From positions 1 to 30,305 of IMG/VR virus record IMGVR_UViG_3300012232_000038: a DNA stretch of 30,305 bases, one strand, 5' to 3'. The DNA comes from a virus (taxonomy: Duplodnaviria; Caudoviricetes). The position numbers and the translations under genes were made by a program. The notes beneath the pieces were generated by a model. That model did no database searches and was not told the DNA's origin. It saw only the letters and a program-made list of their open reading frames with translations. Of this stretch, positions 1-16,952 are shown piece by piece (the first letter of the stretch is position 1; the number at the start of each line of letters is the position of its first letter).

Positions 1-144
1 GGCATGCAGGCGCTCTACCACTGCAATCAGTTGATTCTGCTGCTGGAGAACGATCTGGCTCCGAAGTCGGATTCGTTTGCTGCCGGCATGGATCGGTTGG
101 TCGGGTTGTGGAGCGAGGTCCAAGCAGGGAGCCGGGTCAGGTAA
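1..144 (+). CDS. 3' fragment of a phage protein, possibly the C-terminus of a ParB-like protein
   Basis: Open frame from base 1 (GMQALYHCNQLILLLENDLAPKSDSFAAGMDRLVGLWSEVQAGSRVR) ending TAA 142-144. The GM..LY..NQLI.L.ENDL pattern recalls C-termini of phage ParB-like proteins (from memory, weak). Confidence 0.5.
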   Translation, partial: GMQALYHCNQLILLLENDLAPKSDSFAAGMDRLVGLWSEVQAGSRVR

Positions 145-248
145 GGCCTGGCACGGCATGGCCGGGCATAGCGAGGTAGGGCAGGGAGCGTGGCGATGCC
201 TGGCGTGGCCGGGCATGGCCGGGCATGGCGAGGCAGGGCGAGGCAGGG
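130..248 (+). repeat. GGY-NN pentanucleotide array in two tracts (VIPR-like guide array candidate)
   Basis: Strict 5-nt phase. Tract 130-186: AGCcg GGTca GGTaa GGCct GGCac GGCat GGCcg GGCat AGCga GGTag GGCag GG. Tract 187-248: AGCgt GGCga TGCct GGCgt GGCcg GGCat GGCcg GGCat GGCga GGCag GGCga GGCag GG. Confidence 0.85.
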
Positions 249-256
249 GTTGTACG

Positions 257-284
257 GCCCCTAAGTAATCGGGGCTCCAGGGGC
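257..284 (+). terminator. GC hairpin between the array and the convergent leftward genes
   Basis: GCCCC 257-261 pairs with GGGGC 271-275, or GCCCCT with AGGGGC 279-284. No U-tract. Confidence 0.35.
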
Positions 285-300
285 GGGTGTGGTGGCTGGT

Positions 301-504
301 TCAGCGATCGTTCCGCCCCTTATTCTTGGCCGTGAACATCAACCAGGCGGCTCGTTCTATCCATCTCGCCTGGACCTCACGGCGCTTATTCACAGGATAA
401 CCGGCCAGGAACCCTCGGTTATTCATCCCGAACAAGCGGTAGAAATCGAGGAGCCGTCTTATTCGCCAGACAGACTGGATCTGCTCAGACGTCAGACCGA
501 TCAT
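301..504 (-). CDS. hypothetical protein
   Basis: 67 aa ORF overlapping the end of the upstream minus-strand gene. Confidence 0.5.
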   Translation of the reverse strand: MIGLTSEQIQSVWRIRRLLDFYRLFGMNNRGFLAGYPVNKRREVQARWIERAAWLMFTAKNKGRNDR

Positions 505-775
505 TCTGTTTCATCTGGTAGAAGGTGGCGACGGCGAAGCGTTGGCGGGAGGGATCGAGGTAGCCGAGGCCGAGCCAGAAGCCACAGTTGCGGGCTTCGA
601 AGTTGCGCTCCAGGGCCCCGGCCAGCTTCCCTTCTAGGTGAAGTTCGCGCAGGGCGACCAAACGCTCTTTGGCCTGATTGTGCTCTTGCTGGAACTCGGG
701 CAGCAGGTTCCAGACGCCGAGTTGTTCGGAGATGTGGACGATCGGCTTCCAGTTCTCGCCACTCAGGTGATCCAT
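485..775 (-). CDS. hypothetical protein
   Basis: Protein-like ORF. ATG at 775 (MDHLSGEN...) is better spaced from GGAGG than ATG 784. Confidence 0.6.
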   Translation of the reverse strand: MDHLSGENWKPIVHISEQLGVWNLLPEFQQEHNQAKERLVALRELHLEGKLAGALERNFEARNCGFWLGLGYLDPSRQRFAVATFYQMKQNDRSDV

Positions 776-885
776 GCTCGGCATCCCTCCAGGGCAGCCT
801 CATCGAGTTGGATCTTGCCCGAGTCCTGGAGGTAGATCGGCCATCCCACTGCTCCCGCCAGACCAGCGAAAGAGGCGGTTTTCAC
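763..885 (-). CDS. small hypothetical protein (40 aa)
   Basis: GTG directly after the stop of 886-1200. MKTASFAGLAGAVGWPIYLQDSGKIQLDEAALEGCRAWIT fills the gap in the operon. Confidence 0.45.
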   Translation of the reverse strand: MKTASFAGLAGAVGWPIYLQDSGKIQLDEAALEGCRAWIT

Positions 886-1200
886 CTAGAGGTCCAAAGA
901 TGCTTGGGGCAACGCTTTGGGGTGGGCTTTCTTGACCATCGGCTTCCTGGTAGCCCGCTTTTTCAGGAGAATCTCGGCGTTTTCAAAGGCTTCCTGAAAG
1001 GTTTTGCCGCGCGCCAACACCCGAGAACCTATGCCACGAGGCGGATCATCCTCTCGGATTCCAACCACCGCCCAGGTCACATACTTGCCAAGGGCCTGGC
1101 TGTAGATCTTGTCCCACCGCGCCCAACCTCCCCACACCGCCCAGCGTCGCTTCGCTTCCGACCTGGCTAGTTTTAGTTCTTCTTGTTCAGCGCTTGTCAA
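886..1200 (-). CDS. hypothetical protein
   Basis: 104 aa ORF with a basic C-terminus, first long gene of the leftward unit. Confidence 0.6.
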   Translation of the reverse strand: MTSAEQEELKLARSEAKRRWAVWGGWARWDKIYSQALGKYVTWAVVGIREDDPPRGIGSRVLARGKTFQEAFENAEILLKKRATRKPMVKKAHPKALPQASLDL

Positions 1201-1408
1201 GCTGGGCCCCCTGCCTAGGATTGGGCTAGCTTCGCTCGTCTAGTATCATACTCAGTAGTGTAATATAAGACAGAAGAAGAAGATACACCCCCAGGCCCAC
1301 CTAAAAGCCAGGTTGTTTCCGCTTCGCGTAGGTGTCAAGGGGTCACGGCGAAGATTTGACAATCTCGACGGGTTTTCCGAGAGTCACGACGGCGGCTTTC
1401 ATGGCCGG

Positions 1409-1437
1409 ATTCTACCCCGAAAATAATCTCCTTGCAA
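1409..1437 (-). promoter_or_regulatory. sigma70-type leftward promoter TTGCAA-17-TAGAAT
   Basis: -35 at 1437-1432, 17-nt spacer 1431-1415, -10 TAGAAT at 1414-1409. Confidence 0.7.
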
Positions 1438-1460
1438 CGCCCACGTTGGTGCATTATGGT
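1432..1460 (+). promoter_or_regulatory. sigma70-type rightward promoter TTGCAA-17-TATGGT
   Basis: -35 at 1432-1437, spacer 1438-1454, -10 at 1455-1460. The first hairpin of the structured region begins at 1466. Confidence 0.6.
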
Positions 1461-1465
1461 TGACT

Positions 1466-1618
1466 CATCCCCCAGCGATAGGGGCGATGGGAACCCGTTC
1501 ACGCACGGGTTCGACGTGCCGAGACCCCGGAGGTGAGCCGAAAGGACGCGGCCTCCCTAGGCCCCTTCGGGGCTCTCGGTTAAGAACCTTTAAGACCGGC
1601 GGGCTTATTAAAGGCCGG
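1466..1618 (+). ncRNA. structured non-coding RNA or 5' leader, family unknown
   Basis: Consecutive stems 1466-1489 and 1491-1512, a multibranch 1519-1579 with GAAA and UUCG loops, and stem 1587-1614. Lies directly downstream of a promoter. Confidence 0.6.
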
Positions 1619-1619
1619 C

Positions 1620-1650
1620 TTGACGACACAACGTAGCGGGTATACGTTGT
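1620..1650 (+). promoter_or_regulatory. promoter TTGACG-17-TACGTT with overlapping inverted repeat
   Basis: -35 at 1620-1625, -10 at 1643-1648. ACAACGTA (1628-1635) and TACGTTGT (1643-1650) are a perfect inverted repeat. GGAGG RBS at 1655-1659. Confidence 0.6.
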
Positions 1651-1664
1651 CATCGGAGGTCCGC

Positions 1665-1838
1665 ATGGCTGGCTACGCGAAGCGCCCCGCTCCGAAGCGT
1701 AGACTCCCCGTCGTTGAGCCCCGCTCCGACGCAGGATTCCTCGTCACCCGCGACACCACCACCGTCAAGCCCCCATCAGCGGAAGAACTGCGTCGCATGA
1801 AAAAGCGCGAGTACCAGCGCCGGAGGAATGTGATCTGA
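1665..1838 (+). CDS. small basic protein (MAGYAKRPAPK...)
   Basis: GGAGG RBS before ATG 1665. Stop overlaps the next ATG. N-terminus shared with 15436-15645. Confidence 0.7.
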   Translation: MAGYAKRPAPKRRLPVVEPRSDAGFLVTRDTTTVKPPSAEELRRMKKREYQRRRNVI

Positions 1839-1984
1839 TGCCGCTTAAAAAGGGCTCCAGCAAGCAGACCATCAGCCAGAACATCAAGACCGAGATGGCC
1901 CACGGTAAGCCGCAGAAGCAGGCGGTCGCGATCGCCCTCAACACCGCCCGCAAGTCCGGGGCGAAGATCCCTCGTAAGAAGTAA
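1838..1984 (+). CDS. small basic phage protein, DUF6496-like (48 aa)
   Basis: MPLKKGSSKQTISQNIKTEMAHGKPQKQAVAIALNTARKSGAKIPRKK. The KQAVAIAL motif is widespread near phage packaging genes. TGATG and TAATG overlaps. Below the ORF-track cutoff. Confidence 0.8.
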   Translation: MPLKKGSSKQTISQNIKTEMAHGKPQKQAVAIALNTARKSGAKIPRKK

Positions 1985-2196
1985 TGGCCCGCGCTCAAGC
2001 CAGAATCTTCCGCATCAACAACCCCGCCGGATGGGCGTGGTCGTTCGATCGGCTCGACACTCCGGACGCCGGGATCGACAACTTCGCCACCGCCGTCAGC
2101 CCCAACGCGGCCCTCGATGCCATCAAGCCACTGATCCAGGTTATGCCCGGCACGCTGTCCAAGATCGACTTCGTCGCGGACACCTTCGAGCCATGA
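1984..2196 (+). CDS. hypothetical protein
   Basis: 70 aa, coupled by TAATG overlap, GC3-rich codons. Confidence 0.7.
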   Translation: MARAQARIFRINNPAGWAWSFDRLDTPDAGIDNFATAVSPNAALDAIKPLIQVMPGTLSKIDFVADTFEP

Positions 2197-2393
2197 TCCT
2201 GTTCTACGACGACGACATCGACGTCATCGTCAGAATCGGCCGTCCACCAGAGTTGGCGGCGGCCATGACGCAGAGCAAGGTCGCTCAGTCATGCGTCGGG
2301 GAAGGAGGCGATAGCAATGTTCTGGTTGCTGGTCCTCATCAACTTCACGGACCTGGGGAGGCCGAGCACCGTACAGTCGATTCCGGCGGATGA
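2193..2393 (+). CDS. hypothetical protein
   Basis: ATGA overlap with the previous stop (MILFYDDDIDVIVRIG...). The 3' part overlaps the next candidate. Confidence 0.4.
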   Translation: MILFYDDDIDVIVRIGRPPELAAAMTQSKVAQSCVGEGGDSNVLVAGPHQLHGPGEAEHRTVDSGG

Positions 2394-2478
2394 GGTCGTT
2401 CATACGACTCCGATGATCGACTGGGATGCCTGGAAGGGTGGTGACCGAAACCCCTACCAGTACAACGACAGACCGTAA
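2317..2478 (+). CDS. small hypothetical protein (53 aa)
   Basis: AGGAGG at 2303-2308 before ATG. Sequence MFWLLVLINFTDLGRPSTVQSIPADEVVHTTPMIDWDAWKGGDRNPYQYNDRP. Confidence 0.45.
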   Translation: MFWLLVLINFTDLGRPSTVQSIPADEVVHTTPMIDWDAWKGGDRNPYQYNDRP

Positions 2479-2579
2479 ACTCCAAAACTGACGGTCCGAT
2501 CACAGCAGGGCGGGGGCGAGGGTTGTTACGAGGGGGAACCTGAGCCAACGCCCTGACTATTTCCAGGGAAGGAGCGGCG

Positions 2580-3005
2580 GTGAACTGGCTGATCAGCTTG
2601 CGGATACTCTTGCGTATCCGCCGGGTCCCTGACAAAGTCGGTGCGATCAGCCTGCGCGCGGTGCTGATCCCGAAATCCTCCATATCGAAAGGGAGTTCGA
2701 TAATGGCCATCACCCCGATCACTTGCGACCTGGCCCACGATGTCCTCTACGCCGCCACGCCCACGGCTGGCGGGAATCCGGTCCCGGCTACCTTGGCCTG
2801 GGCCTCCAGCGACACCGCCATCCTCGAACTGATCGTCAGCCCCGACACCCTGGGATGCCTTGCGATCACCAAGGCGGTCGGCGTCGCCACCGTCACCGTT
2901 TCCAGCGGGTCGGTCTCCGAGTCCCAGGAGGTCACGGTGGTCGCGATCCCGCCGCCCCCGGTGGACGCCATCGGGCTGACCAGCACCATCGTGCCCAAGG
3001 CGTGA
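2580..3005 (+). CDS. Ig-like (Big_2-type) domain protein, alternative start at 2703
   Basis: WASSDTAI...G..AITKAVGVATVTVS...QEVTV matches the Big_2 pattern. RBS-like sequences precede both GTG 2580 and ATG 2703. Confidence 0.7.
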   Translation: MNWLISLRILLRIRRVPDKVGAISLRAVLIPKSSISKGSSIMAITPITCDLAHDVLYAATPTAGGNPVPATLAWASSDTAILELIVSPDTLGCLAITKAVGVATVTVSSGSVSESQEVTVVAIPPPPVDAIGLTSTIVPKA

Positions 3006-3044
3006 GGCTCACCATGCCTTGGAGCAAGGCGTAAACCCCCATCG

Positions 3045-3923
3045 ATGGCTCACGTCGAGTACGGCTGTCCGAACTGCGAATCCGTGATGTACCGCAGCCG
3101 GACGGCCGTTTCGTCGTTGGACTTCAAGCCGCTCCAGACCATCACCTGCAAGAACTGTCTGGCCCAGGTGCCGTGGTTCGAGATGATCCGTAAGTACCTG
3201 AGGACTGAATCGTTGGGGGGTGGCGGGGCGCAGTTTTCAGGCACTCCACCAACTGTGGTGGGATCGGGATCGTTCTACGACGAGACCCACAACACCACCG
3301 TCGTCACGATTCCGGCGGTGACCGCCCTAGCCGGGCAGACGATCCTGGTGGCGGCGATGATCTCGGATGATATCGGGGCTACCGGAGCGGTGATGTTGTG
3401 GAACGGACTCAATCCGGATGGAGCAGATGAGTCAACCACCGGAACACCCACCGCGGGGGGATCGTATTATGCCGCTATCGACGTGGTGTCGTCGGCAACC
3501 AGCGACGTTACGATCACCTGCAATAACCCATTTTCTACCATCAACTCGTGCGCCGCCGTGGCGCTCGTGGTCCCAAACACGAGAGCGCCATCAATGGACG
3601 CGGTGGCCGTTCGTAGCTCGTTCGGTAGCGGAACCGGGACCACGTCATCAACCAGCCAGGACGGAACGCCTAGCCGGATTCCAGCTATCGCCATCGCTGC
3701 TAATGGCACCCTGGGACCACTGGGCGACGTTGCGGGTTCCTGGACCGACTCTTTCATGGACTTAGTTCGGGTTGGCACGGCCGGGGCGACCGACACCAAG
3801 AACAGCACGATGTCGGTTGGATTCAAGTTCCTGACTAGTCAGATTCCGGTAAACGTCGGCAAGGCGGGGTTTACCAATCGTCAATGGTGCGTGATCCAGC
3901 GCCCACTGAAGCTGGTGGGATGA
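3045..3923 (+). CDS. Zn-ribbon N-terminus plus beta-rich C-terminal domain (putative virion accessory/adhesin)
   Basis: CPNC...CKNC, a Gly linker, then a Thr/Ser/Gly-rich beta-type domain. Confidence 0.75.
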   Translation: MAHVEYGCPNCESVMYRSRTAVSSLDFKPLQTITCKNCLAQVPWFEMIRKYLRTESLGGGGAQFSGTPPTVVGSGSFYDETHNTTVVTIPAVTALAGQTILVAAMISDDIGATGAVMLWNGLNPDGADESTTGTPTAGGSYYAAIDVVSSATSDVTITCNNPFSTINSCAAVALVVPNTRAPSMDAVAVRSSFGSGTGTTSSTSQDGTPSRIPAIAIAANGTLGPLGDVAGSWTDSFMDLVRVGTAGATDTKNSTMSVGFKFLTSQIPVNVGKAGFTNRQWCVIQRPLKLVG

Positions 3924-4669
3924 GCCATATCGAGTACCTGTGCGCCAAGTGCAAGAGCGTCCTGAACCGCGGCCTCAGCCTCTACTCCGACAAGAGCTTT
4001 CATCCGCTCCAGAAGATCCGCTGCCGTCGCTGCGGCTACACCATGAAGTGGTACGAGATGATCGAGCGCAAGACCCGGGTCAAGCTGGAGGGCGGGCCGC
4101 TGGTGATTCCAAGCCTCCAACAGACCCTGTTTGCTACGGGTGGCAGAGAGATCCTGATCGCCGATGACTTCGGCGGCGACTCGCTGATCGAGAACTTCGA
4201 TGTCAATACCGCCGCCGGAACCCACGATGGCAGCGATGTCACCCAAGACTCGGCGCACTGGCTAGATGGCTTCCTGACTGCCTCCAGCGGTCACGTCGAA
4301 GTCATTTATGCAATGGACCCGGTGACATTCACTGGCGCAATCGACTTCGTCCGCTGGCATCTCCGCGCCTGGTTCGAGGAGTTGAGCGGCACGGCCCATA
4401 TTCGGCAGATCAGCGGGGTCTGGGTGGTGGCAGGTTTTGGAGCGACCAATACGGTAGCGACCAGGAACATGACCGGCATCAACAGTCCGACCGGCATCGA
4501 CCTCGACGTGACCGTGAACCCCAACACCGGCCAGCCGTGGACTGCGGCGCAACTCAACACCCGGAGCTTTGGGATGCAGTTGGATCACTTTACGCTGGAC
4601 CCGGCCGGGACCGGAACCGAGACCTTCATGCGGTGCAGCGAGTTCTGGATCGAAATCTGGGGGCACTGA
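3920..4669 (+). CDS. Zn-ribbon N-terminus (paralog of 3045-3923) plus different beta-rich domain
   Basis: ATGA overlap. CAKC...CRRC. NPNTGQPWT motif in the C-terminal domain. Confidence 0.75.
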   Translation: MSHIEYLCAKCKSVLNRGLSLYSDKSFHPLQKIRCRRCGYTMKWYEMIERKTRVKLEGGPLVIPSLQQTLFATGGREILIADDFGGDSLIENFDVNTAAGTHDGSDVTQDSAHWLDGFLTASSGHVEVIYAMDPVTFTGAIDFVRWHLRAWFEELSGTAHIRQISGVWVVAGFGATNTVATRNMTGINSPTGIDLDVTVNPNTGQPWTAAQLNTRSFGMQLDHFTLDPAGTGTETFMRCSEFWIEIWGH

Positions 4670-5292
4670 TGAGCGATCTGACCATGGACCGAGATGTCAT
4701 GCTGGACCGAATGGAAAAGGCCAGGTCCAAACGCTTACCCGATAGGTCTATGCCGAAACCCGAACCAGAGAAGAAGCGCTTCACCGCCGATGAGATCGAA
4801 CAGTTCCTGCACGAAATCGCCGCCGATCCCAGCTCGGGAGCCGATCGGTTCCGCGCCATCAAGATGCTCCGCGGCCAGGGCGAGGCCGAAGGGGACGCTC
4901 TATTGGCTGACGAGGACGTGCAGAACTTCCTGACCATCGAGATGAAGGCGCTCGGCTCGGTCCGGGTGCAGGCGGCCTACAAGAAGGCTTTTCCGAGCCA
5001 GAAGGCCCCGGAGTTCTCTGAGCCCAGGATCGACGAATCCATGCTCTCCAAGGAGGCGATGGAGCGGGTTCGCCGTTGCCTCAACCTGAGGCTGCTATAC
5101 AAGATTTACCCACAGACCAAGCGCAGTGGGTTTCCACCCGGGTATCCGGTTGGCCGTGGGGTAGAAGTCATCAAGGAGTGGGCGCAGCGCATGGCCATGA
5201 AGATTGAGGTGGACCGCGAGATGGCCGTCATCGGACCAAGGAAGGTCAATGGGAACCCAGGGCTGGAGATCCAGCCAGACGCTCCACGGTGA
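4669..5292 (+). CDS. putative terminase small subunit
   Basis: TGATG overlap. Helical charged protein immediately upstream of TerL. EIEQFLHEIA...DRFRAIKML resembles the TerS oligomerisation region. Confidence 0.55.
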   Translation: MSDLTMDRDVMLDRMEKARSKRLPDRSMPKPEPEKKRFTADEIEQFLHEIAADPSSGADRFRAIKMLRGQGEAEGDALLADEDVQNFLTIEMKALGSVRVQAAYKKAFPSQKAPEFSEPRIDESMLSKEAMERVRRCLNLRLLYKIYPQTKRSGFPPGYPVGRGVEVIKEWAQRMAMKIEVDREMAVIGPRKVNGNPGLEIQPDAPR

Positions 5293-7006
5293 TCCCAAGG
5301 CCAGACGGGCTCTAATCCGCCACGTCTGCCTCAAGGACTTCTGGGCGTTCTTCTGCTACGGCTTCGGGGCCTACGTGAACCCCAAGGGCGAGCGCTGGAT
5401 CGACCCCGAGGTCCACGAGCCGATGGCGCGCTGGTTTCAGAAGCACGTCGATGATTGGTTCCAGAAGCGCGAGAAGGGCCGGGGCGAGCAGAAGCATCTC
5501 GCCATTCTGGTCCATCGCGAGGTCGGCAAGACCACCATGTTCACCCTGGCCGGGCAGGCATGGCTCCATCTTCGTGACCCGGAGATCAGCACCTACATAG
5601 GCTCAGAATCACTGAAGCAGTCCCAGGACATGCTGGCCGCGATCAAGGCCGTGCTCGATGGCTCGGACCCCTACGCTCTGTTCCCCAAGCTCTACGGCAA
5701 CTGGTCCAGTCAGGCGAGAACCTGGACCGGGGTTCAGGTGGTCCATGCTGCGAGGAAGAACACCGCGCGCCGCGACCCCAGCATCGGCACTTTCGCGGTC
5801 GAGACCAGCATCGTCGGTGCCCATCCGGACGCCATCTTCTATGACGATCCGATCAGCTATCCCAGACTCAGAAGCGACACCAACTGGCTCAATGCGGTCA
5901 ATGTTCAGGTCGACTCCCTGATTCCGGTCATCCAGTCGGACGGACTGGTCGTCTGGATCGGCACCCGCTACGACGACATGGATCACTTCGGCCGGGCGTT
6001 CCGCGAGCAGGGGGTGGCGACCCTGGAGGGCATGGAGACCGACTCCATCACCCCGACCGTGGATGGCATGTGGCACGCCTACTTCATGGCCGGACGAAAG
6101 CGGGAGACTAACCAGGAACACCCCAAGGGCATCCCCAGCACCCCCAAGGTCTGGTCCGAGCGCCGCATGGCGAGCTACGAAAAGACCAACCCGATTGAGT
6201 ACGCCTCCCAGGTCATGAACGATCCGACCAGCTCCGGCCACAATCCGCTGACCATCGAACAGACCAGGCAGAGGCTCGTCAAGGCTAGCGACGTGCCCTG
6301 GAGCAGTCTCCGCTACGCCATCTGCTGCGATACCGCCTTCTCAGACGGCCACCGCATCGTGGGCAAGGACGAGACGGTGATGATCGTCCACGGCTACCCC
6401 CGAAACGGCTCCGGGGACGTCTACGTCATCGAGGGCTACGGAAGCTCAACCTGGAGGGCGGAGGACTTCGCCAACCAGTTGATCGCCCTGGTCCAGCGCT
6501 ACCGCAGGATGGGAAGGCATGTGTTCGCAATCACCGACGAGGTCACCCACGCCGGCAAGAAGGAGGCATGGAACATGGCCCTGGTCAGCCGGTTCAACGA
6601 CGCCGGCATCCCGATGCCCAGAGGCAAACTGATGGAGTTCCGCCGCGGCGGAAGTCAGGGTCGGAAGGGGGGCAACGACGGGAGACTGGTCACCGCCGCC
6701 AGCTTCTGGGTGGACAACCACGTCTGGTGCGTCGAGGGAGCCCCCGGGATCGACCGGTTGATGAGCCAGATGGCCCAGATCGGCCAGTACCTAATCAACG
6801 ACAAGATCAAGATTGACTGGGCCGATGCGCACGCCGATGCGTTCCAGCCCGATCTTTACCAGCCCATGCTCCGACACGAACGCAAGGGCGGTCTGCTGTC
6901 CGGAGCAAGGATCATCGAGGAGGACGGCGTGGACGGGCGGATGTGGATGGACGACGAATACAGCCAGTGGCGAGACGAGAATCCGAGACCTCCGGAGGGC
7001 CGGTGA
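5249..7006 (+). CDS. terL: terminase large subunit
   Basis: Walker A HREVGKTT, Walker B IFYDDP, GTRY coupling motif, RNase H-like nuclease acidic motifs ICCDTAFS, DETV and DWADA. RBS before ATG 5249. Confidence 0.92.
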   Translation: MGTQGWRSSQTLHGDPKARRALIRHVCLKDFWAFFCYGFGAYVNPKGERWIDPEVHEPMARWFQKHVDDWFQKREKGRGEQKHLAILVHREVGKTTMFTLAGQAWLHLRDPEISTYIGSESLKQSQDMLAAIKAVLDGSDPYALFPKLYGNWSSQARTWTGVQVVHAARKNTARRDPSIGTFAVETSIVGAHPDAIFYDDPISYPRLRSDTNWLNAVNVQVDSLIPVIQSDGLVVWIGTRYDDMDHFGRAFREQGVATLEGMETDSITPTVDGMWHAYFMAGRKRETNQEHPKGIPSTPKVWSERRMASYEKTNPIEYASQVMNDPTSSGHNPLTIEQTRQRLVKASDVPWSSLRYAICCDTAFSDGHRIVGKDETVMIVHGYPRNGSGDVYVIEGYGSSTWRAEDFANQLIALVQRYRRMGRHVFAITDEVTHAGKKEAWNMALVSRFNDAGIPMPRGKLMEFRRGGSQGRKGGNDGRLVTAASFWVDNHVWCVEGAPGIDRLMSQMAQIGQYLINDKIKIDWADAHADAFQPDLYQPMLRHERKGGLLSGARIIEEDGVDGRMWMDDEYSQWRDENPRPPEGR

Positions 7007-8184
7007 TCGCTAAGCAGCGCTTCAACTGTCGGCTCTGTGATGGGACATTTCGCCCGGTGCTATCACTCGGCGACCAATACCTGGTCCGCTTCCCCGACAA
7101 GATCGACGAATCATTGCCCAAGGCCCCACTCAGCCTGGTCCAGTGCGAGTCCTGCCATCTGCTCCAGCTAGAGCACACCACCAACCCCGACCTGCTGTTC
7201 CGGGAGTTCTACTACCGGAGCGGGATCAATCAGACCATGCGGGACGCGCTCCAGGACGTGGTGGACGACGCCTCGCACTATGTCCGCAAGGGGGTCTGGC
7301 TCGACATCGGGGCCAACGACGGGTACCTACTTTCCTGTCTGCCCGATGGTTGGATCAAGATCGCCTGTGAACCGGCGCAGAACTTCCGGCCCAACCTGGA
7401 GGAGCACGCCGACCATGTCATCTCGGACTACTTCTCGGCGGACCACGACTGTCTCTGGGACAAAACCCGGGGCCGCTGCGACGTCGTTACCTCGGTGGCC
7501 TGCTTCTACGACGTGGACGATCCCAACGAGTTCGTGGCCGACGTGGCCGAAGTCATGGCCCCGGGCGGGGTCTGGATCAACCAACTCAACGACTCCCCGA
7601 CCATGCTCAAGCGCAATGCCTTCGATTCCGTGTGCCACGAGCATCTGGTCTACTACGATATCCACAACCTGGCCCAGCTTTACGCCAAGCACGGCCTGGT
7701 CATCACCAAGATCAGCTTCAACGAGGTCAACGGCGGCTCGGTCCGCATCTTCGCCCATAAAGAGGTCTCGGGCCTCCAGCCGATGAATCTGCTGGGGGTC
7801 CCCAGGGTGAGCCCGGAGGCGGCCGGCGCCTTCGCCAGTCGCGTCAAGCGCTGGAAGCAGGAGATGGGCAACTACCTGAACAGCCTCAAGACTGGAGTCT
7901 GGGGCTACGGGGCCAGTACCAAGGGCGCGGTATTGCTCCAGTATCTCGATTGCGACGACCGGATCGTTGCGATCGCCGACCGGAACCCGACCAAGCACGG
8001 CAAGATGATGGTCGGCAGCTGGGCTCCGATCGTCGGCGAGGCCGAGATGAGGGTGGCGACTCCGCCCCACGTCCTGGTGCTGCCGTGGGCGTTCAAGGAT
8101 GAGTTCACCGAGCGCGAAGCGGAGACCAGGGCCGCTGGTTCGGTGTTCATCTACCCGCTACCCCAGATCGAGATTCAGCTATGA
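7003..8184 (+). CDS. NDP-sugar C-methyltransferase (TcaB9/NovU/EryBIII-like, Methyltransf_13/14 architecture)
   Basis: Zn site CRLC/CESC, LDIGANDG SAM motif, FDSVCHEH, NGGSVR, YGASTKG, DRNPTKHG, LPWAF, YPLP. GTGA overlap with terL. Confidence 0.9.
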   Translation: MIAKQRFNCRLCDGTFRPVLSLGDQYLVRFPDKIDESLPKAPLSLVQCESCHLLQLEHTTNPDLLFREFYYRSGINQTMRDALQDVVDDASHYVRKGVWLDIGANDGYLLSCLPDGWIKIACEPAQNFRPNLEEHADHVISDYFSADHDCLWDKTRGRCDVVTSVACFYDVDDPNEFVADVAEVMAPGGVWINQLNDSPTMLKRNAFDSVCHEHLVYYDIHNLAQLYAKHGLVITKISFNEVNGGSVRIFAHKEVSGLQPMNLLGVPRVSPEAAGAFASRVKRWKQEMGNYLNSLKTGVWGYGASTKGAVLLQYLDCDDRIVAIADRNPTKHGKMMVGSWAPIVGEAEMRVATPPHVLVLPWAFKDEFTEREAETRAAGSVFIYPLPQIEIQL

Positions 8185-8894
8185 GGTGGCAGGGGGCCTT
8201 CTTTGACGGCCGGGTCAAGATGGTCAAGCCGGGAGAGGATCTGCCCGAGCACATCTCGGCCCCACGCAAAGGCCACCGCCCGTCCTACCCCAACGGCTTC
8301 ATCTCGTCCTGGGCGGCCGATCTTTTCCCCGAGGGGTACAAAGGTCATGCGATTGACGTCGGGGCCAGCGACGGCATCTCGATCTCCTCGACCTACGTGC
8401 TGGAGAAGTGGGCTGGATGGCATGTGCTTTGTGTCGAGGCCAACCCGTTCTTCAAGCCGTTTCTGAAGCAGAGCCGCATGTTTGTGGAGATGTGCGCCTG
8501 CGGCGCTGAGCCGATGGACGAAGCCACGTTTTACGTCAATGAGGTGCGTCCCGAAGCCTGGTCAGCGCTTCAGATCACGCCGGGATTTCGGGAGCGGGCC
8601 AAGGTGCTCAAGACCAAGGGCGAAGGAGTCGAGTGGTCCTCCCACAAGGTAAGAGTCGATACGGTGGATCGGCTCCTGACCAAGTGGGGGTTCCCCAAGC
8701 TCGACGTGCTGTTCGTGGACGTCGAGGGTCATGAGACGGCGGTGCTTCAGGGTGCGGCACTCGACAAGTGGAAGCCCAAGGCAATGGTGGTCGAGAACTG
8801 GAAGGCCGGATTCACCGACGACTACCTCAAGGGTTTCGGCTACAAGCGGGTGGCCCGATCGGTGGACAACGATTTCTATGTCAGAAACGACTAG
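8181..8894 (+). CDS. FkbM-family methyltransferase (Methyltransf_21)
   Basis: IDVGASDG, CVEANP, LFVDVEGHE.AVLQG. Confidence 0.9.
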   Translation: MRWQGAFFDGRVKMVKPGEDLPEHISAPRKGHRPSYPNGFISSWAADLFPEGYKGHAIDVGASDGISISSTYVLEKWAGWHVLCVEANPFFKPFLKQSRMFVEMCACGAEPMDEATFYVNEVRPEAWSALQITPGFRERAKVLKTKGEGVEWSSHKVRVDTVDRLLTKWGFPKLDVLFVDVEGHETAVLQGAALDKWKPKAMVVENWKAGFTDDYLKGFGYKRVARSVDNDFYVRND

Positions 8895-8985
8895 CCAGCA
8901 CGGAGAAGAACGCCTGGTCCGGGCGTATTTTCCACCCGGGTTCAAGGGTCACGCCTGTGACATCTACGTAAAGGAGACCGCATGA
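8878..8985 (+). pseudogene. internally deleted second FkbM methyltransferase (35 aa remnant)
   Basis: MSETTSQHGEERLVRAYFPPGFKGHACD|IYVKETA aligns with FPEGYKGHAID and the C-terminal FYVRND of the upstream FkbM. Confidence 0.7.
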
Positions 8986-9821
8986 GCGAGATTGTGTTCA
9001 CGTTTCCGGGCAAGGCGGGAGACGCGCTCCATCAGTGGCCAGTTGCTTACCACTGGGCCAAGCAAGCCGGCCAGAAGTTCACCTGCTGGATGGACGAGCG
9101 GTCGTGCAAGATCGTGGCCCCGCTGTTCGCGGCGCAGCCCTGCGTGGAGAAGATCGAGTTCAAGCCCGGGGTGGAGACCTATAGCTGTGGTGGTCAGCCC
9201 TTCCACTTCGACCTCGACACCAAGGAGTTCATCGGCAGGACGGTCTACCACCTGGGCTTGAGGAGCTTCCCCCAGCGCCAGCTAACCCTCCACTGCCTGG
9301 CCGACTCCGGGGTGCCGGTCAAGGTGGAGCCCAGCGTCCTGGCGGACGAGCCCAGCCTGGTCGTCAATCCGCAGGAGAAGCGGAACCGGGTCATTTTGCA
9401 TGGGCAGGCGGTATGCCCTCACACCCGGGCGACGCCGGGATTCTGGAAGTTCCTCTACTCCATCCGGAAAGACCTGGAGGAGCGCTTCGAGGAGATCGTG
9501 TTCGTGGGCAGCGAGCGGGATCGCGAGGTGGCCACCCGGACCTATCCCCAGTGGCAGACCTTCGATGACAAGGGCGACTTCTCGGTCCTGGCCGACTACA
9601 TGGCGGCCTCTGAGCTGGTGATCGGGGTTGGCTCCTCGGTGGTGGTGCTGGCCAGCCTGCTCAAGGTGCCCAGCATCCGGGTCCACGACCCGATCTCAGA
9701 CGCCCCCAAGGCGATCTGGGAGAACCTTCAGCGGGTCCATATGAACGACACCGAGAACGAGCTTCGCAAGCTCTGGCCAGCGTGGCGGGACGAGCATTTT
9801 CCGGTCAAGGTAGCTGTGTGA
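8982..9821 (+). CDS. GT-B glycosyltransferase, GT9 (heptosyltransferase)-like
   Basis: N-terminal GKAGDALHQWP and C-terminal LADYMAASELVIGVGSSVVVLASLLKVP resemble GT9 motifs. Confidence 0.75.
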   Translation: MSEIVFTFPGKAGDALHQWPVAYHWAKQAGQKFTCWMDERSCKIVAPLFAAQPCVEKIEFKPGVETYSCGGQPFHFDLDTKEFIGRTVYHLGLRSFPQRQLTLHCLADSGVPVKVEPSVLADEPSLVVNPQEKRNRVILHGQAVCPHTRATPGFWKFLYSIRKDLEERFEEIVFVGSERDREVATRTYPQWQTFDDKGDFSVLADYMAASELVIGVGSSVVVLASLLKVPSIRVHDPISDAPKAIWENLQRVHMNDTENELRKLWPAWRDEHFPVKVAV

Positions 9822-10075
9822 GTGGCGGTCAGCCAACGCTGGGGAGCCTCGTGGATCACCTGATCGTGGTCAGCATGAAGCTCTGGGCGGTCCAGGATAA
9901 GGTCAATCTGGCGGCCCGAACGGACCGGGGGATTGATCCAGTCACCACTCGACAGCTATTCGACCTGAACTTGGACAGAAATCAGACCATGACCGAGATC
10001 GACCAGCTTCTGGCCGAGTCGGTCAAAACGGGCACCGCCAAGGTGGACCCGAGGATCAAGTTGACTGGCGACTAA
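9818..10075 (+). CDS. DUF4254-like helical protein
   Basis: TLGSLVDHL....KLW..QD....LNLDRNQ...EID pattern. GTGA overlap with the GT9 gene. Confidence 0.65.
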   Translation: MSGGQPTLGSLVDHLIVVSMKLWAVQDKVNLAARTDRGIDPVTTRQLFDLNLDRNQTMTEIDQLLAESVKTGTAKVDPRIKLTGD

Positions 10076-15476: not shown

Positions 15477-15645
15477 GAAGAAGTTCGGCCAGGGAGCCTA
15501 CGGATTTACCGAGTCGGACAGCGCCTATTCTCCGGGCAAGCACAGCACCGGGGGGCCGAGCACTGCCCCGATCGACTGGCTGTCAACGATGGTTAAGAAG
15601 GTGGGCAGAAAGATCAAGCCCTTCATCGACAAGCACTACAAATGA
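15436..15645 (+). CDS. small basic protein (MAGYASRPAPK...)
   Basis: AGGAG RBS. ATGA overlap with the glycosyltransferase. N-terminus shared with 1665-1838. Confidence 0.7.
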   Translation: MAGYASRPAPKTREKKFGQGAYGFTESDSAYSPGKHSTGGPSTAPIDWLSTMVKKVGRKIKPFIDKHYK

Positions 15646-16952
15646 GCCAGAAGAACCCGATCCGGGTCTATACCTCGGTTCCGCAACGTCACACGGCATC
15701 GTTCTACTACCGGCTTCAGGTTCCCCTGCGAGCGGCGCAGGCGCTTCAGTTGCCGGTCAAGGCGGTGGTTGACACCGACTCGGCCTCGGTCTCGAACGAG
15801 GATCGGGTCCGCATCTTCTCCGAGTCCGACATCATCCTGCTCTATCAGCCGGTGGGGGAGTCGGCCAACCACAACGTTCGGGGGCTCCAGGGATTCCTGC
15901 CTAGCAAGCGGGAGGAAGGCTGGAAGTGGGCTCCATCGGTGGTGATCGAGACCGACGACAACCTGTTCAACGTCTCGCCGCTGAACCACGCCTTCAAAGG
16001 CCTGGGATTCCGCGACATGAATGGCACCGAGATTCCGCTTGGGCACCATGTCGGCGTGATGCGGGACGGCGAGCGCAAGGTATTGTGGAAGGACGGCGAG
16101 GGCGGTTTCTCGCTGGCTAAGAACCGTCAGGCAATCGCTGCCTATCGGGCGATCTGTGAGATGGCGGATGCGATTCAGTGCTCGACCCCAGACGTCGAGC
16201 AGGCAGTTAGGCGAGAGGTCACGCCGCGTCGGTCGCGGGTGTTTCCCAACTCCGTGCTGATGTCGGACTACGAGCAGGTGGACATCCGCACCGACCCCGA
16301 CCAGGTCAAGATTCTCTGGCAGGGCGGAAACGCCCATTACGAGGACTGGTATCCGCTGCGCGAGGCGCTGGGCAACATCACCAAGAAATATCCCCAGGTC
16401 CACTGGGTGATCTGGGGGGCCAGTTTCCCCTGGGTCAACGAACTGATCCCGGCGCATCGGATGACGCTTCAGCCGTGGTGTAACTATCCGGAATACAAGC
16501 TCCGGCTGGCGATGGTGGGCCATGACATCAACCTGGCTCCGCTGACCGATAACGTGTTCAACACCTGCCGCTCGGCGATCAAGTGGTACGAATCCTCGGT
16601 GCTGAAAAAGCCGATTCCAACCCTAGCCCAGAACACCGCGGCCTATGGCCGGGAGATGGTGGAGGGCGAGACCGGGCTGCTGTTCAATGACGCCAAGGAG
16701 TTTGAGTCTCAGTTGGGCCGGCTGATCGAGGACGCCACGCTGAGAAAGACCCTGGGCGAGAACGCCAAGGACTGGGTCCATGAGAACCGCGATGCGATGA
16801 AGCTGGTTCCCGAGATCGTGTCGTTCTGGGAGGAGATGCGGGAGGAGCGGAAGATCGAGCAGCCGCACGTCTCCGACGATGAGTGGCGGGAGATCGTGTT
16901 GCAGGCCGAAGCCGAGGAGATGCAGGAGCAGCCCATCGTTCCCGTGGGGTAA
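15642..16952 (+). CDS. GT-B glycosyltransferase (GT4-like)
   Basis: FYYRLQVP, VIETDDNL, ADAIQCST, VFPNSV, WQGGNAHYED, DINLAPL.DNVFN.CRSAIKWYE, TGLLF. Confidence 0.88.
   Translation: MSQKNPIRVYTSVPQRHTASFYYRLQVPLRAAQALQLPVKAVVDTDSASVSNEDRVRIFSESDIILLYQPVGESANHNVRGLQGFLPSKREEGWKWAPSVVIETDDNLFNVSPLNHAFKGLGFRDMNGTEIPLGHHVGVMRDGERKVLWKDGEGGFSLAKNRQAIAAYRAICEMADAIQCSTPDVEQAVRREVTPRRSRVFPNSVLMSDYEQVDIRTDPDQVKILWQGGNAHYEDWYPLREALGNITKKYPQVHWVIWGASFPWVNELIPAHRMTLQPWCNYPEYKLRLAMVGHDINLAPLTDNVFNTCRSAIKWYESSVLKKPIPTLAQNTAAYGREMVEGETGLLFNDAKEFESQLGRLIEDATLRKTLGENAKDWVHENRDAMKLVPEIVSFWEEMREERKIEQPHVSDDEWREIVLQAEAEEMQEQPIVPVG

Follow-up and report, generated by a model that had tools for sequence, protein, structure and literature searches.

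The window, by which we mean the whole 30,305-nucleotide stretch of caudoviral DNA that was analysed, carries phage genes for a terminase, an SU10-like portal, a capsid and an adaptor protein, and begins within a gene missed in the preliminary description. The 3' end of this plus-strand gene occupies bases 1-144: frame 1 is open over bases 1-141 and then meets a stop codon at 142-144, inside the first of two repeat tracts. The 47 residues encoded here form the C-terminus of P0001, a protein of 218 aa recorded on a 41,715-base contig. A shorter contig (L029, 3,502 bases), found with close homologues, encodes residues 1-212 of P0001 at 100% identity, and L029:3380-3502 is identical to window 1-123. 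On a contig from run X1, window 1-1500 begins at base 3,380, so 3,379 bases precede it. We took L029 as the left flank because of the 123-base identity and because its other 3,379 bases equal the missing stretch; the join is defined by this identity and the matching lengths, and no single contig read across it. At window positions 6943-8894 and 15642-16952, two methyltransferase genes (C-methyltransferase-like and FkbM-like) separate terminase from portal, and the head genes include a glycosyltransferase-like gene.

The preliminary description had read two tracts near the left edge as the 3' end of a VIPR-like cassette with its effector outside the window, and had advised looking left of base 1 for a RAMP/Cas7-like gene. 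A Vipr gene of 189 aa is indeed found there, on L029. The orientation proposed at the time, opposite to the neighbouring genes, was wrong: the array shares its strand with vipr and with the gene for a ParB-fold protein, overlapping the last codons of the latter, and of its neighbours only the small ORFs on the right are encoded on the minus strand. A sigma-70-like site (L029:2184-2213, plus strand) is located ∼90 bases before vipr. The plus-strand order is thus promoter-like site, vipr, ParB-fold gene, two guides and hairpin, the whole locus from promoter-like site to hairpin spanning ∼1.4 kb:

L029:2301-2870, ∼1,080 to 510 bases left of base 1, plus strand: vipr, 189 aa, overlapping the vap start by GTGA
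1-144, plus strand: ParB-fold accessory gene, candidate vap (P0001), last 47 codons and stop, 100% match to P0001
123-131, plus strand: junction motif RGYRRGG-AG before unit 1, within the vap coding sequence; recurs at 180-188
130-186, plus strand: putative vrRNA unit 1, 11 YNNGG repeats; predicted target an IS1-like transposase gene
187-248, plus strand: 2-base AG linker and putative vrRNA unit 2, 12 YNNGG repeats; NN6-10 in common with unit 1
256-276, plus strand: 3' stem-loop, likely the array tail or end; counterpart in the relative L001

Two further features of the flank are recorded here as observations. The divergent promoter-like sites at L029:2184-2213 (plus), which precedes vipr, and L029:1178-1150 (minus) end in a common tail, TTGGTGCATACT, which the pattern used did not find in the window or in L001. 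The palindrome GTGTACAC occurs six times in L029:1654-1746, at spacings of 13-20 bases (chance expectation 0.03), ahead of an ORF of 63-66 aa without a Pfam match; the copies are possibly operators or origin iterons.

Positions 130-248 contain two in-phase, adjacent tracts of 11 and 12 GGY-NN pentamers (parsed from 130 and 187), and parsing exactly reproduces the variable dinucleotides listed in the preliminary description: CG CA AA CT AC AT CG AT GA AG AG for tract 1 and GT GA CT GT CG AT CG AT GA AG GA AG for tract 2. The AGC start, the GGCAG-GG end and the common NN6-10 (at-cg-at-ga-ag) reported for both tracts are likewise seen. GGY triplets occupy 9 of 11 positions in tract 1 and 10 of 12 in tract 2, the exceptions being AGC (three times) and TGC. 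The best stretch of 10 pentamers has 9 GGY triplets, compared with no more than 5 anywhere else in the window and a maximum of 6 in 300 third-order Markov simulations, and no further GGY-NN tract was found on either strand of the whole window. In the published YNNGG notation tract 1 has 11 repeats (132-186) and tract 2 has 12 (189-248), with an AG linker between them.

A hairpin had been described behind the array. It is present at 256-276 (-10.5 kcal/mol), but its support is modest: the z score is -2.06 when it is folded alone and 0.45, not significant, in context, where a rival hairpin forms at 245-262. The closest complete relative, L001, has a terminal hairpin in the same place, with a stronger stem and a similar AAGTA loop, and in the two sequences compared (the window and L001) this single terminal hairpin is a candidate structured 3' tail, with none per unit. 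Searches of 16 loci returned no Rfam match at gathering score, including hammerhead ribozymes between units, and window 1-1800 gave one weak, unrelated Rfam match.

The 189-aa protein encoded on L029 has as its best solved-structure match PDB ID 36pp, ‘SUSP1 Vipr protein’ (phmmer E 3.7e-7), and a profile of 65 Vipr sequences matches this SUSP1 Vipr structure with E 1.8e-23 (model positions 3-184 of 186). The glycines of the G-loop are invariant in the Vipr alignment. Structure prediction from the single sequence yielded no usable model (pLDDT 34), and neither PADLOC nor NCBIfam has a model for this Vipr. Relatives are numerous: a set of 50%-identity representatives contains 2,015 at E ≤0.001, and the cultured-phage records contain 154. 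In a Vipr tree, the protein is sister to that of L001 (support 100/92), on the opposite side from all loci in the tree whose units are offset by a -1 shift.

P0001, the candidate Vap, matches the Pfam ParB_N family with E 2e-5 (score 25, just below the cut-off of 26.3) and PHROG 1033 with E 8e-12. Its predicted structure (pLDDT 93.9) comprises an N-terminal ParB fold followed by helical domains, and its best fold matches are ParB, Noc and KorB (E 2e-7 to 2e-5, TM 0.4-0.5), among them the KorB structure 8qa9 (E 4e-6). The GxxR motif (Gly-56, His-58, Arg-59) is invariant in 36 homologues. We found no HNH or other nuclease domain in P0001, no match to it in 50,697 cultured-phage records, and no viral relatives when P0001 was used alone as query. 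For ParB folds, a published study ties GxxR to nucleotide binding and holds that the choice of nucleotide is not predictable from sequence (PMC12704722). A role of Vap as a clamp-like co-repressor is conceivable, but we regard it as rather doubtful. In the available text of the VIPR papers (10.64898/2026.04.26.720920, 10.64898/2026.04.26.720927, 10.64898/2026.10.15.759431, 10.64898/2026.10.21.760802) and of the supplement PDF, figures excepted, the word ‘ParB’ does not occur; this Vap, possibly under the label ‘HTH-like’, or the transposase target discussed below could well appear in Fig. 5A, Figs. S16-S21 and Data S3-S4 of the discovery preprint. A ParB-fold helper beside Vipr in dozens of loci provides a testable idea of Vap function.

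The association is seen throughout the family. Among 108 loci fetched with the ParB-like family, a GGY tract is present in 75 and a vipr-like gene within 2.5 kb in 85. Deduplication left 95 related ParB-like genes, of which 75 have vipr no more than 2.5 kb away and 60 have both vipr and a GGY tract; for the 50 with enough flank, the counts are 40 with vipr and 32 with both. L001 has the same gene order as the window (Vipr 72% and Vap 58% identical) and 10 units, whose NN strings differ from those of the window and between which the RGYRRGG-AG junction occurs nine times. This repeated junction is restricted to L001 and L030 among the 108 loci. The NN strings differ across 344 distinct guides of relatives. 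A -1 phase shift separates units in 26 of 47 loci scored, and the shift in the window is +2.

ParB-linked 5-base repeats with fixed triplets other than GGY occur in L011, L013, L107 and L004 (GTC 10/10, CGC 7, GGA 9 and AGC 6), and L064, L087 and L089 have long GGY-NN arrays on both strands of one locus, with up to 34 pentamers in phase. The best skip-1 sites (that is, with one target base skipped between dinucleotides) of guides L058:4398, L075:2106 and L080:1236 (17/20, 17/20 and 19/22) fall in the ParB-like gene of the VIPR loci L027, L007 and L048, respectively, and are at background overall.

VIPR is a CRISPR-like DNA silencer described in 2026, and the present locus resembles it in most respects. 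As in the published systems (10.64898/2026.04.26.720920; type II reference Escherichia phage SUSP1, PDB ID 36pp), a small RAMP gene of ∼190 aa and one accessory gene precede a phage-borne array of YNNGG repeats, 9-16 in number, in which GGY is conserved and NN varies, no self-target is seen in the DNA, and the one-base skip falls on the wobble position, here in silico, for guide 1 only and above the preprint's 80% bar. Staggered VIPR arrays with 1-nt overlaps (same preprint, Fig. S18 legend) likewise consist of tail-less head-to-tail units, but with a shift of -1 rather than +2. There are also differences. Vaps in the VIPR texts are WH-like, HTH-like, HNH, nuclease or helicase proteins, whereas the Vap here has a ParB fold. 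Each SUSP1 vrRNA carries a structured tail, whereas we find an AG linker, tail-less units and one terminal hairpin; VIPR ribozyme-vrRNA arrays (examples in types I and V) have hammerhead ribozymes between units in place of such a 2-base linker. The targets named in those texts are satellites, prophages, other VIPRs and REP elements, in contrast to the IS1-like transposase predicted here. On sequence grounds the locus appears to belong to the VIPR systems, as vipr, the accessory gene, the repeat form, the one-base skip of guide 1 and the lack of a self-target all indicate, and we conclude that the tracts are almost certainly the vrRNA array of a phage VIPR system. As the VIPR class is already published, the array itself is unsurprising; what the locus adds is the ParB-fold helper and the predicted transposase target.

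Two other systems offer partial parallels. TIGR-TasA with tasParB (PMC12045711) is likewise a nuclease-free RNA-guided phage system with a parB-like gene in the operon, but its Nop-domain effector is unrelated and its guide form different. In KorB-KorA of plasmid RK2 (PMC11790492), a ParB-family clamp is made a repressor by a site-bound partner; this is the nearest functional parallel for the Vap but an analogy only, KorA being a protein that reads DNA directly, unlike the RNA-guided Vipr.

Under the published target rule, NN dinucleotides are joined with one wildcard base between them (10.64898/2026.04.26.720920). Read in this way, guide 1 NN1-8 translates as R-Q/H-N/K-L-T-M/I-R-M/I (RQNLTMRM motif). 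This motif follows an invariant glutamate of IS1-like transposases, and the skipped base is the third (wobble) base of each codon. The gapped-pattern target search proposed in the preliminary description was productive for this stretch of guide 1: NN1-8 has 118 matches in viral contigs, 113 of which are to one family and read RQNLTMRM or a near variant in frame (best 20/22), compared with 15, 3 and 16 matches for three other 16-base guide patterns. The 9-unit patterns proposed gave 0 (guide 1 NN1-9, exact) and 2 matches, the latter at chance level. Guide 1 NN3-10, with 15 matches (best 18/22), five of them in one gene that we take to be protease-like, was rejected as being at chance level. Pfam DDE_Tnp_IS1 (PF03400) is found in all three of the NN1-8 matches tested, above the cut-off in two. 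A genome scan with 19 fixed bases over 29 of 64 parts returned at least 120 loci, 119 of them IS1-like (114 by pattern, 5 by eye), with a best score of 21/22 for two members of the IS1-like family and one unrelated gene (L264). The 120 loci represent 98 distinct sites with a median protein identity of 55%, and a glutamate precedes the footprint in 116. IS1 transposases are described as having a DDE triad (PMC12428005). Conserved D, D and E motifs are present in 49, 50 and 50 of 50 long target frames, respectively; from spacing and background knowledge we infer that the glutamate before the footprint is the catalytic one. The target family occurs in both the viral and the genome collections, and the matches span many phyla. 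Among cultured-phage records, the IS1-like target family occurs solely in Brevundimonas phage Gurke (ON529850.1:174821-175666, a segment without annotated feature), at 31% identity.

Across 401 genomes from a single class, guide 1 at full length has 11 matches with at most 2 mismatches in 9 genomes, all with the motif (10 matches in 8 genomes when the unpublished G391 is left out; the 9 also include the seed), and the reversed pattern has none. To lessen circularity, the family was also picked by protein homology (16 matches), and 13 genes were kept once the seed and two matches too short to reach the motif had been dropped; four of the 13 are from the seed's genome. The best guide 1 site is the in-frame motif in 10 of the 13, and the mean best score at skip 1, 16.0/22, exceeds those at skip 0 (13.0), skip 2 (12.4) and skip 3 (12.8). 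When nine-unit guides were drawn at random with the NN composition of the clade, 6 of 2,178,000 draws scored as high as observed. The resulting per-family p of ∼3e-6 needs correction for thousands of large gene families; with a guessed 1,000-10,000 of these and two guides, we roughly estimate a ∼0.5-6% probability of a chance match. In run X1, the possible source of this DNA, three IS1-like contigs occur, and 15/18 and 15/20 visible positions match.

Other observations bear on how far the match extends. No 22/22 site for guide 1 exists in the collections searched, and NN9 (GA) is matched by no family member seen. NN11 corresponds to a purine pair at all nine L001 junctions and is thus better regarded as scaffold than as independent support for the target. 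The target protein has IS1 as its best NCBIfam match (E 2.8e-18), at 66.6 bits compared with the curated cut-off of 100, and no clear pair of terminal inverted repeats surrounds the target gene in any of 6 loci; the target may for these reasons not be a working IS. Several diverged copies of the target gene are found in one genome. The 320 guides of relatives are not in excess on IS1-like genes, and 344 guides across related loci show no clear excess of ≥80% matches at skip 1 (103, compared with 87, 88 and 98 at the other skips). Within the 33.7 kb of the window and L029 (the contig that bears the same vap has 41.7 kb), no self-target rises above background at skips 0-3 (best 15/22 and 16/24). 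From these sequence comparisons, guide 1 is probably aimed at the IS1-like transposase family. In their available text, figures excepted, the discovery preprint does not contain ‘insertion sequence’ and the competition preprint contains neither that term nor ‘IS1’. Guide 1 would thus concern a target class not named in the VIPR texts, with a wobble-skipping code that spans a family of ∼55% protein identity.

No target for guide 2 was found in viral contigs, the 401 genomes or the IS1-like loci (best 17/24). The candidates examined were rejected: NN1-9 has two viral matches at 19/24, at chance level, NN3-10 has three at 18/24, and NN1-8 has 16, the best at 20/24, including three related genes (presumably dUTPase-like) but no family. 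In the 401 genomes there are 2 matches at 3 mismatches compared with 1 for the control. Guide 2 NN5-12 is made up of two doubled decamers; none of 342 guides of relatives has this form. At least five shared NN are found in 6 of 1,270 within-locus pairs of relatives' guides, mostly at 3' ends, and in 4 of 4,895 pairs between loci, these four probably being near-duplicate loci. From this within-locus sharing and the common NN6-10 of the window, guide 2 probably arose by copying of a 3' half between units. Its target may be a gene outside the collections, or the guide may have no activity.

Reports on other VIPR systems provide a framework for the mechanism. Vipr protomers coat the RNA, hide GGY and pair NN with two of three target bases (10.64898/2026.04.26.720927), VIPR represses transcription without cutting, on either gene strand (VIPR preprints), and in SUSP1 the accessory gene is required for protection (10.64898/2026.10.15.759431). 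We consider it quite probable that the locus is a VIPR operon (vipr, ParB-fold vap, vrRNA1, vrRNA2 and hairpin) whose guide 1 likely silences IS1-like transposase genes. A single transcript would start from the promoter-like site ∼90 bases before vipr and would be cleaved at the RGYRRGG-AG junctions to yield units of ∼57-62 nt. A Vipr filament parked by guide 1 would then block transcription of the transposase gene, whether this lies in the host chromosome or in a competing prophage, while the ParB-fold Vap may bind nucleotide and strengthen the block. Silencing might stop the element from hopping into the phage or competing with it. One guide would cover many variants, because wobble positions go unread and the codons that are read adjoin a conserved residue.

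The array could be genuine and the transposase match fortuitous, with guides directed against rival-phage genes outside the collections, or the locus being a worn two-unit remnant. The lack of a perfect site for guide 1 and of any match for guide 2 would agree with this, as would the 10 units of the closest relative compared with 2 here, the opening of unit 1 with an internal-type junction inside vap, as after a deletion, and the doubled decamers of guide 2 NN5-12 that the relatives' guides lack. Chance alone would nevertheless have to account for a conserved motif being matched at 16 of 16 informative bases, with the skip in wobble phase, across 98 distinct sites, and for the family-level p obtained on homology-picked genes, and we judge this reading unlikely. 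Less likely still is a cutting system in which Vap, as a ParB/sulfiredoxin-fold nuclease, is recruited to the guide-marked site: PHROG matches of P0001 do include ‘ParB-like partition nuclease’ and ‘nuclease’ families, and some VIPR types have predicted nucleases (10.64898/2026.04.26.720920), but the model resembles full ParB, Noc and KorB, with helical domains after the N-terminal fold, its invariant GxxR is of the kind linked to nucleotide binding in PMC12704722, and the search for HNH and other nuclease domains was negative.

The idea that the tract has no RNA function, being either a microsatellite formed by slippage or a coding frame of low complexity, has almost nothing left to recommend it. 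The first 15 tract bases are coding and guide 2 contains doubled decamers, but the vap frame stops at 144, inside tract 1, and variation is restricted to NN. The array moreover lies behind a Vipr gene, as in the 60 of 95 relatives with both Vipr gene and GGY tract, whose NN all differ. The vipr linkage largely refutes such a reading, and the preliminary description was right to set slippage aside.

Taken together, our analysis favors a VIPR operon with a ParB-fold Vap and a guide probably directed at IS1-like transposases. More speculatively, and with the odds against it, the locus may represent a widespread unnamed VIPR branch that pairs a Vipr filament with a ParB/KorB-like, nucleotide-switched clamp, and through which phages silence transposases at the codons beside the catalytic glutamate. 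If true, this would be phage-encoded, RNA-guided transposon silencing, in which one guide covers a whole diverse family.
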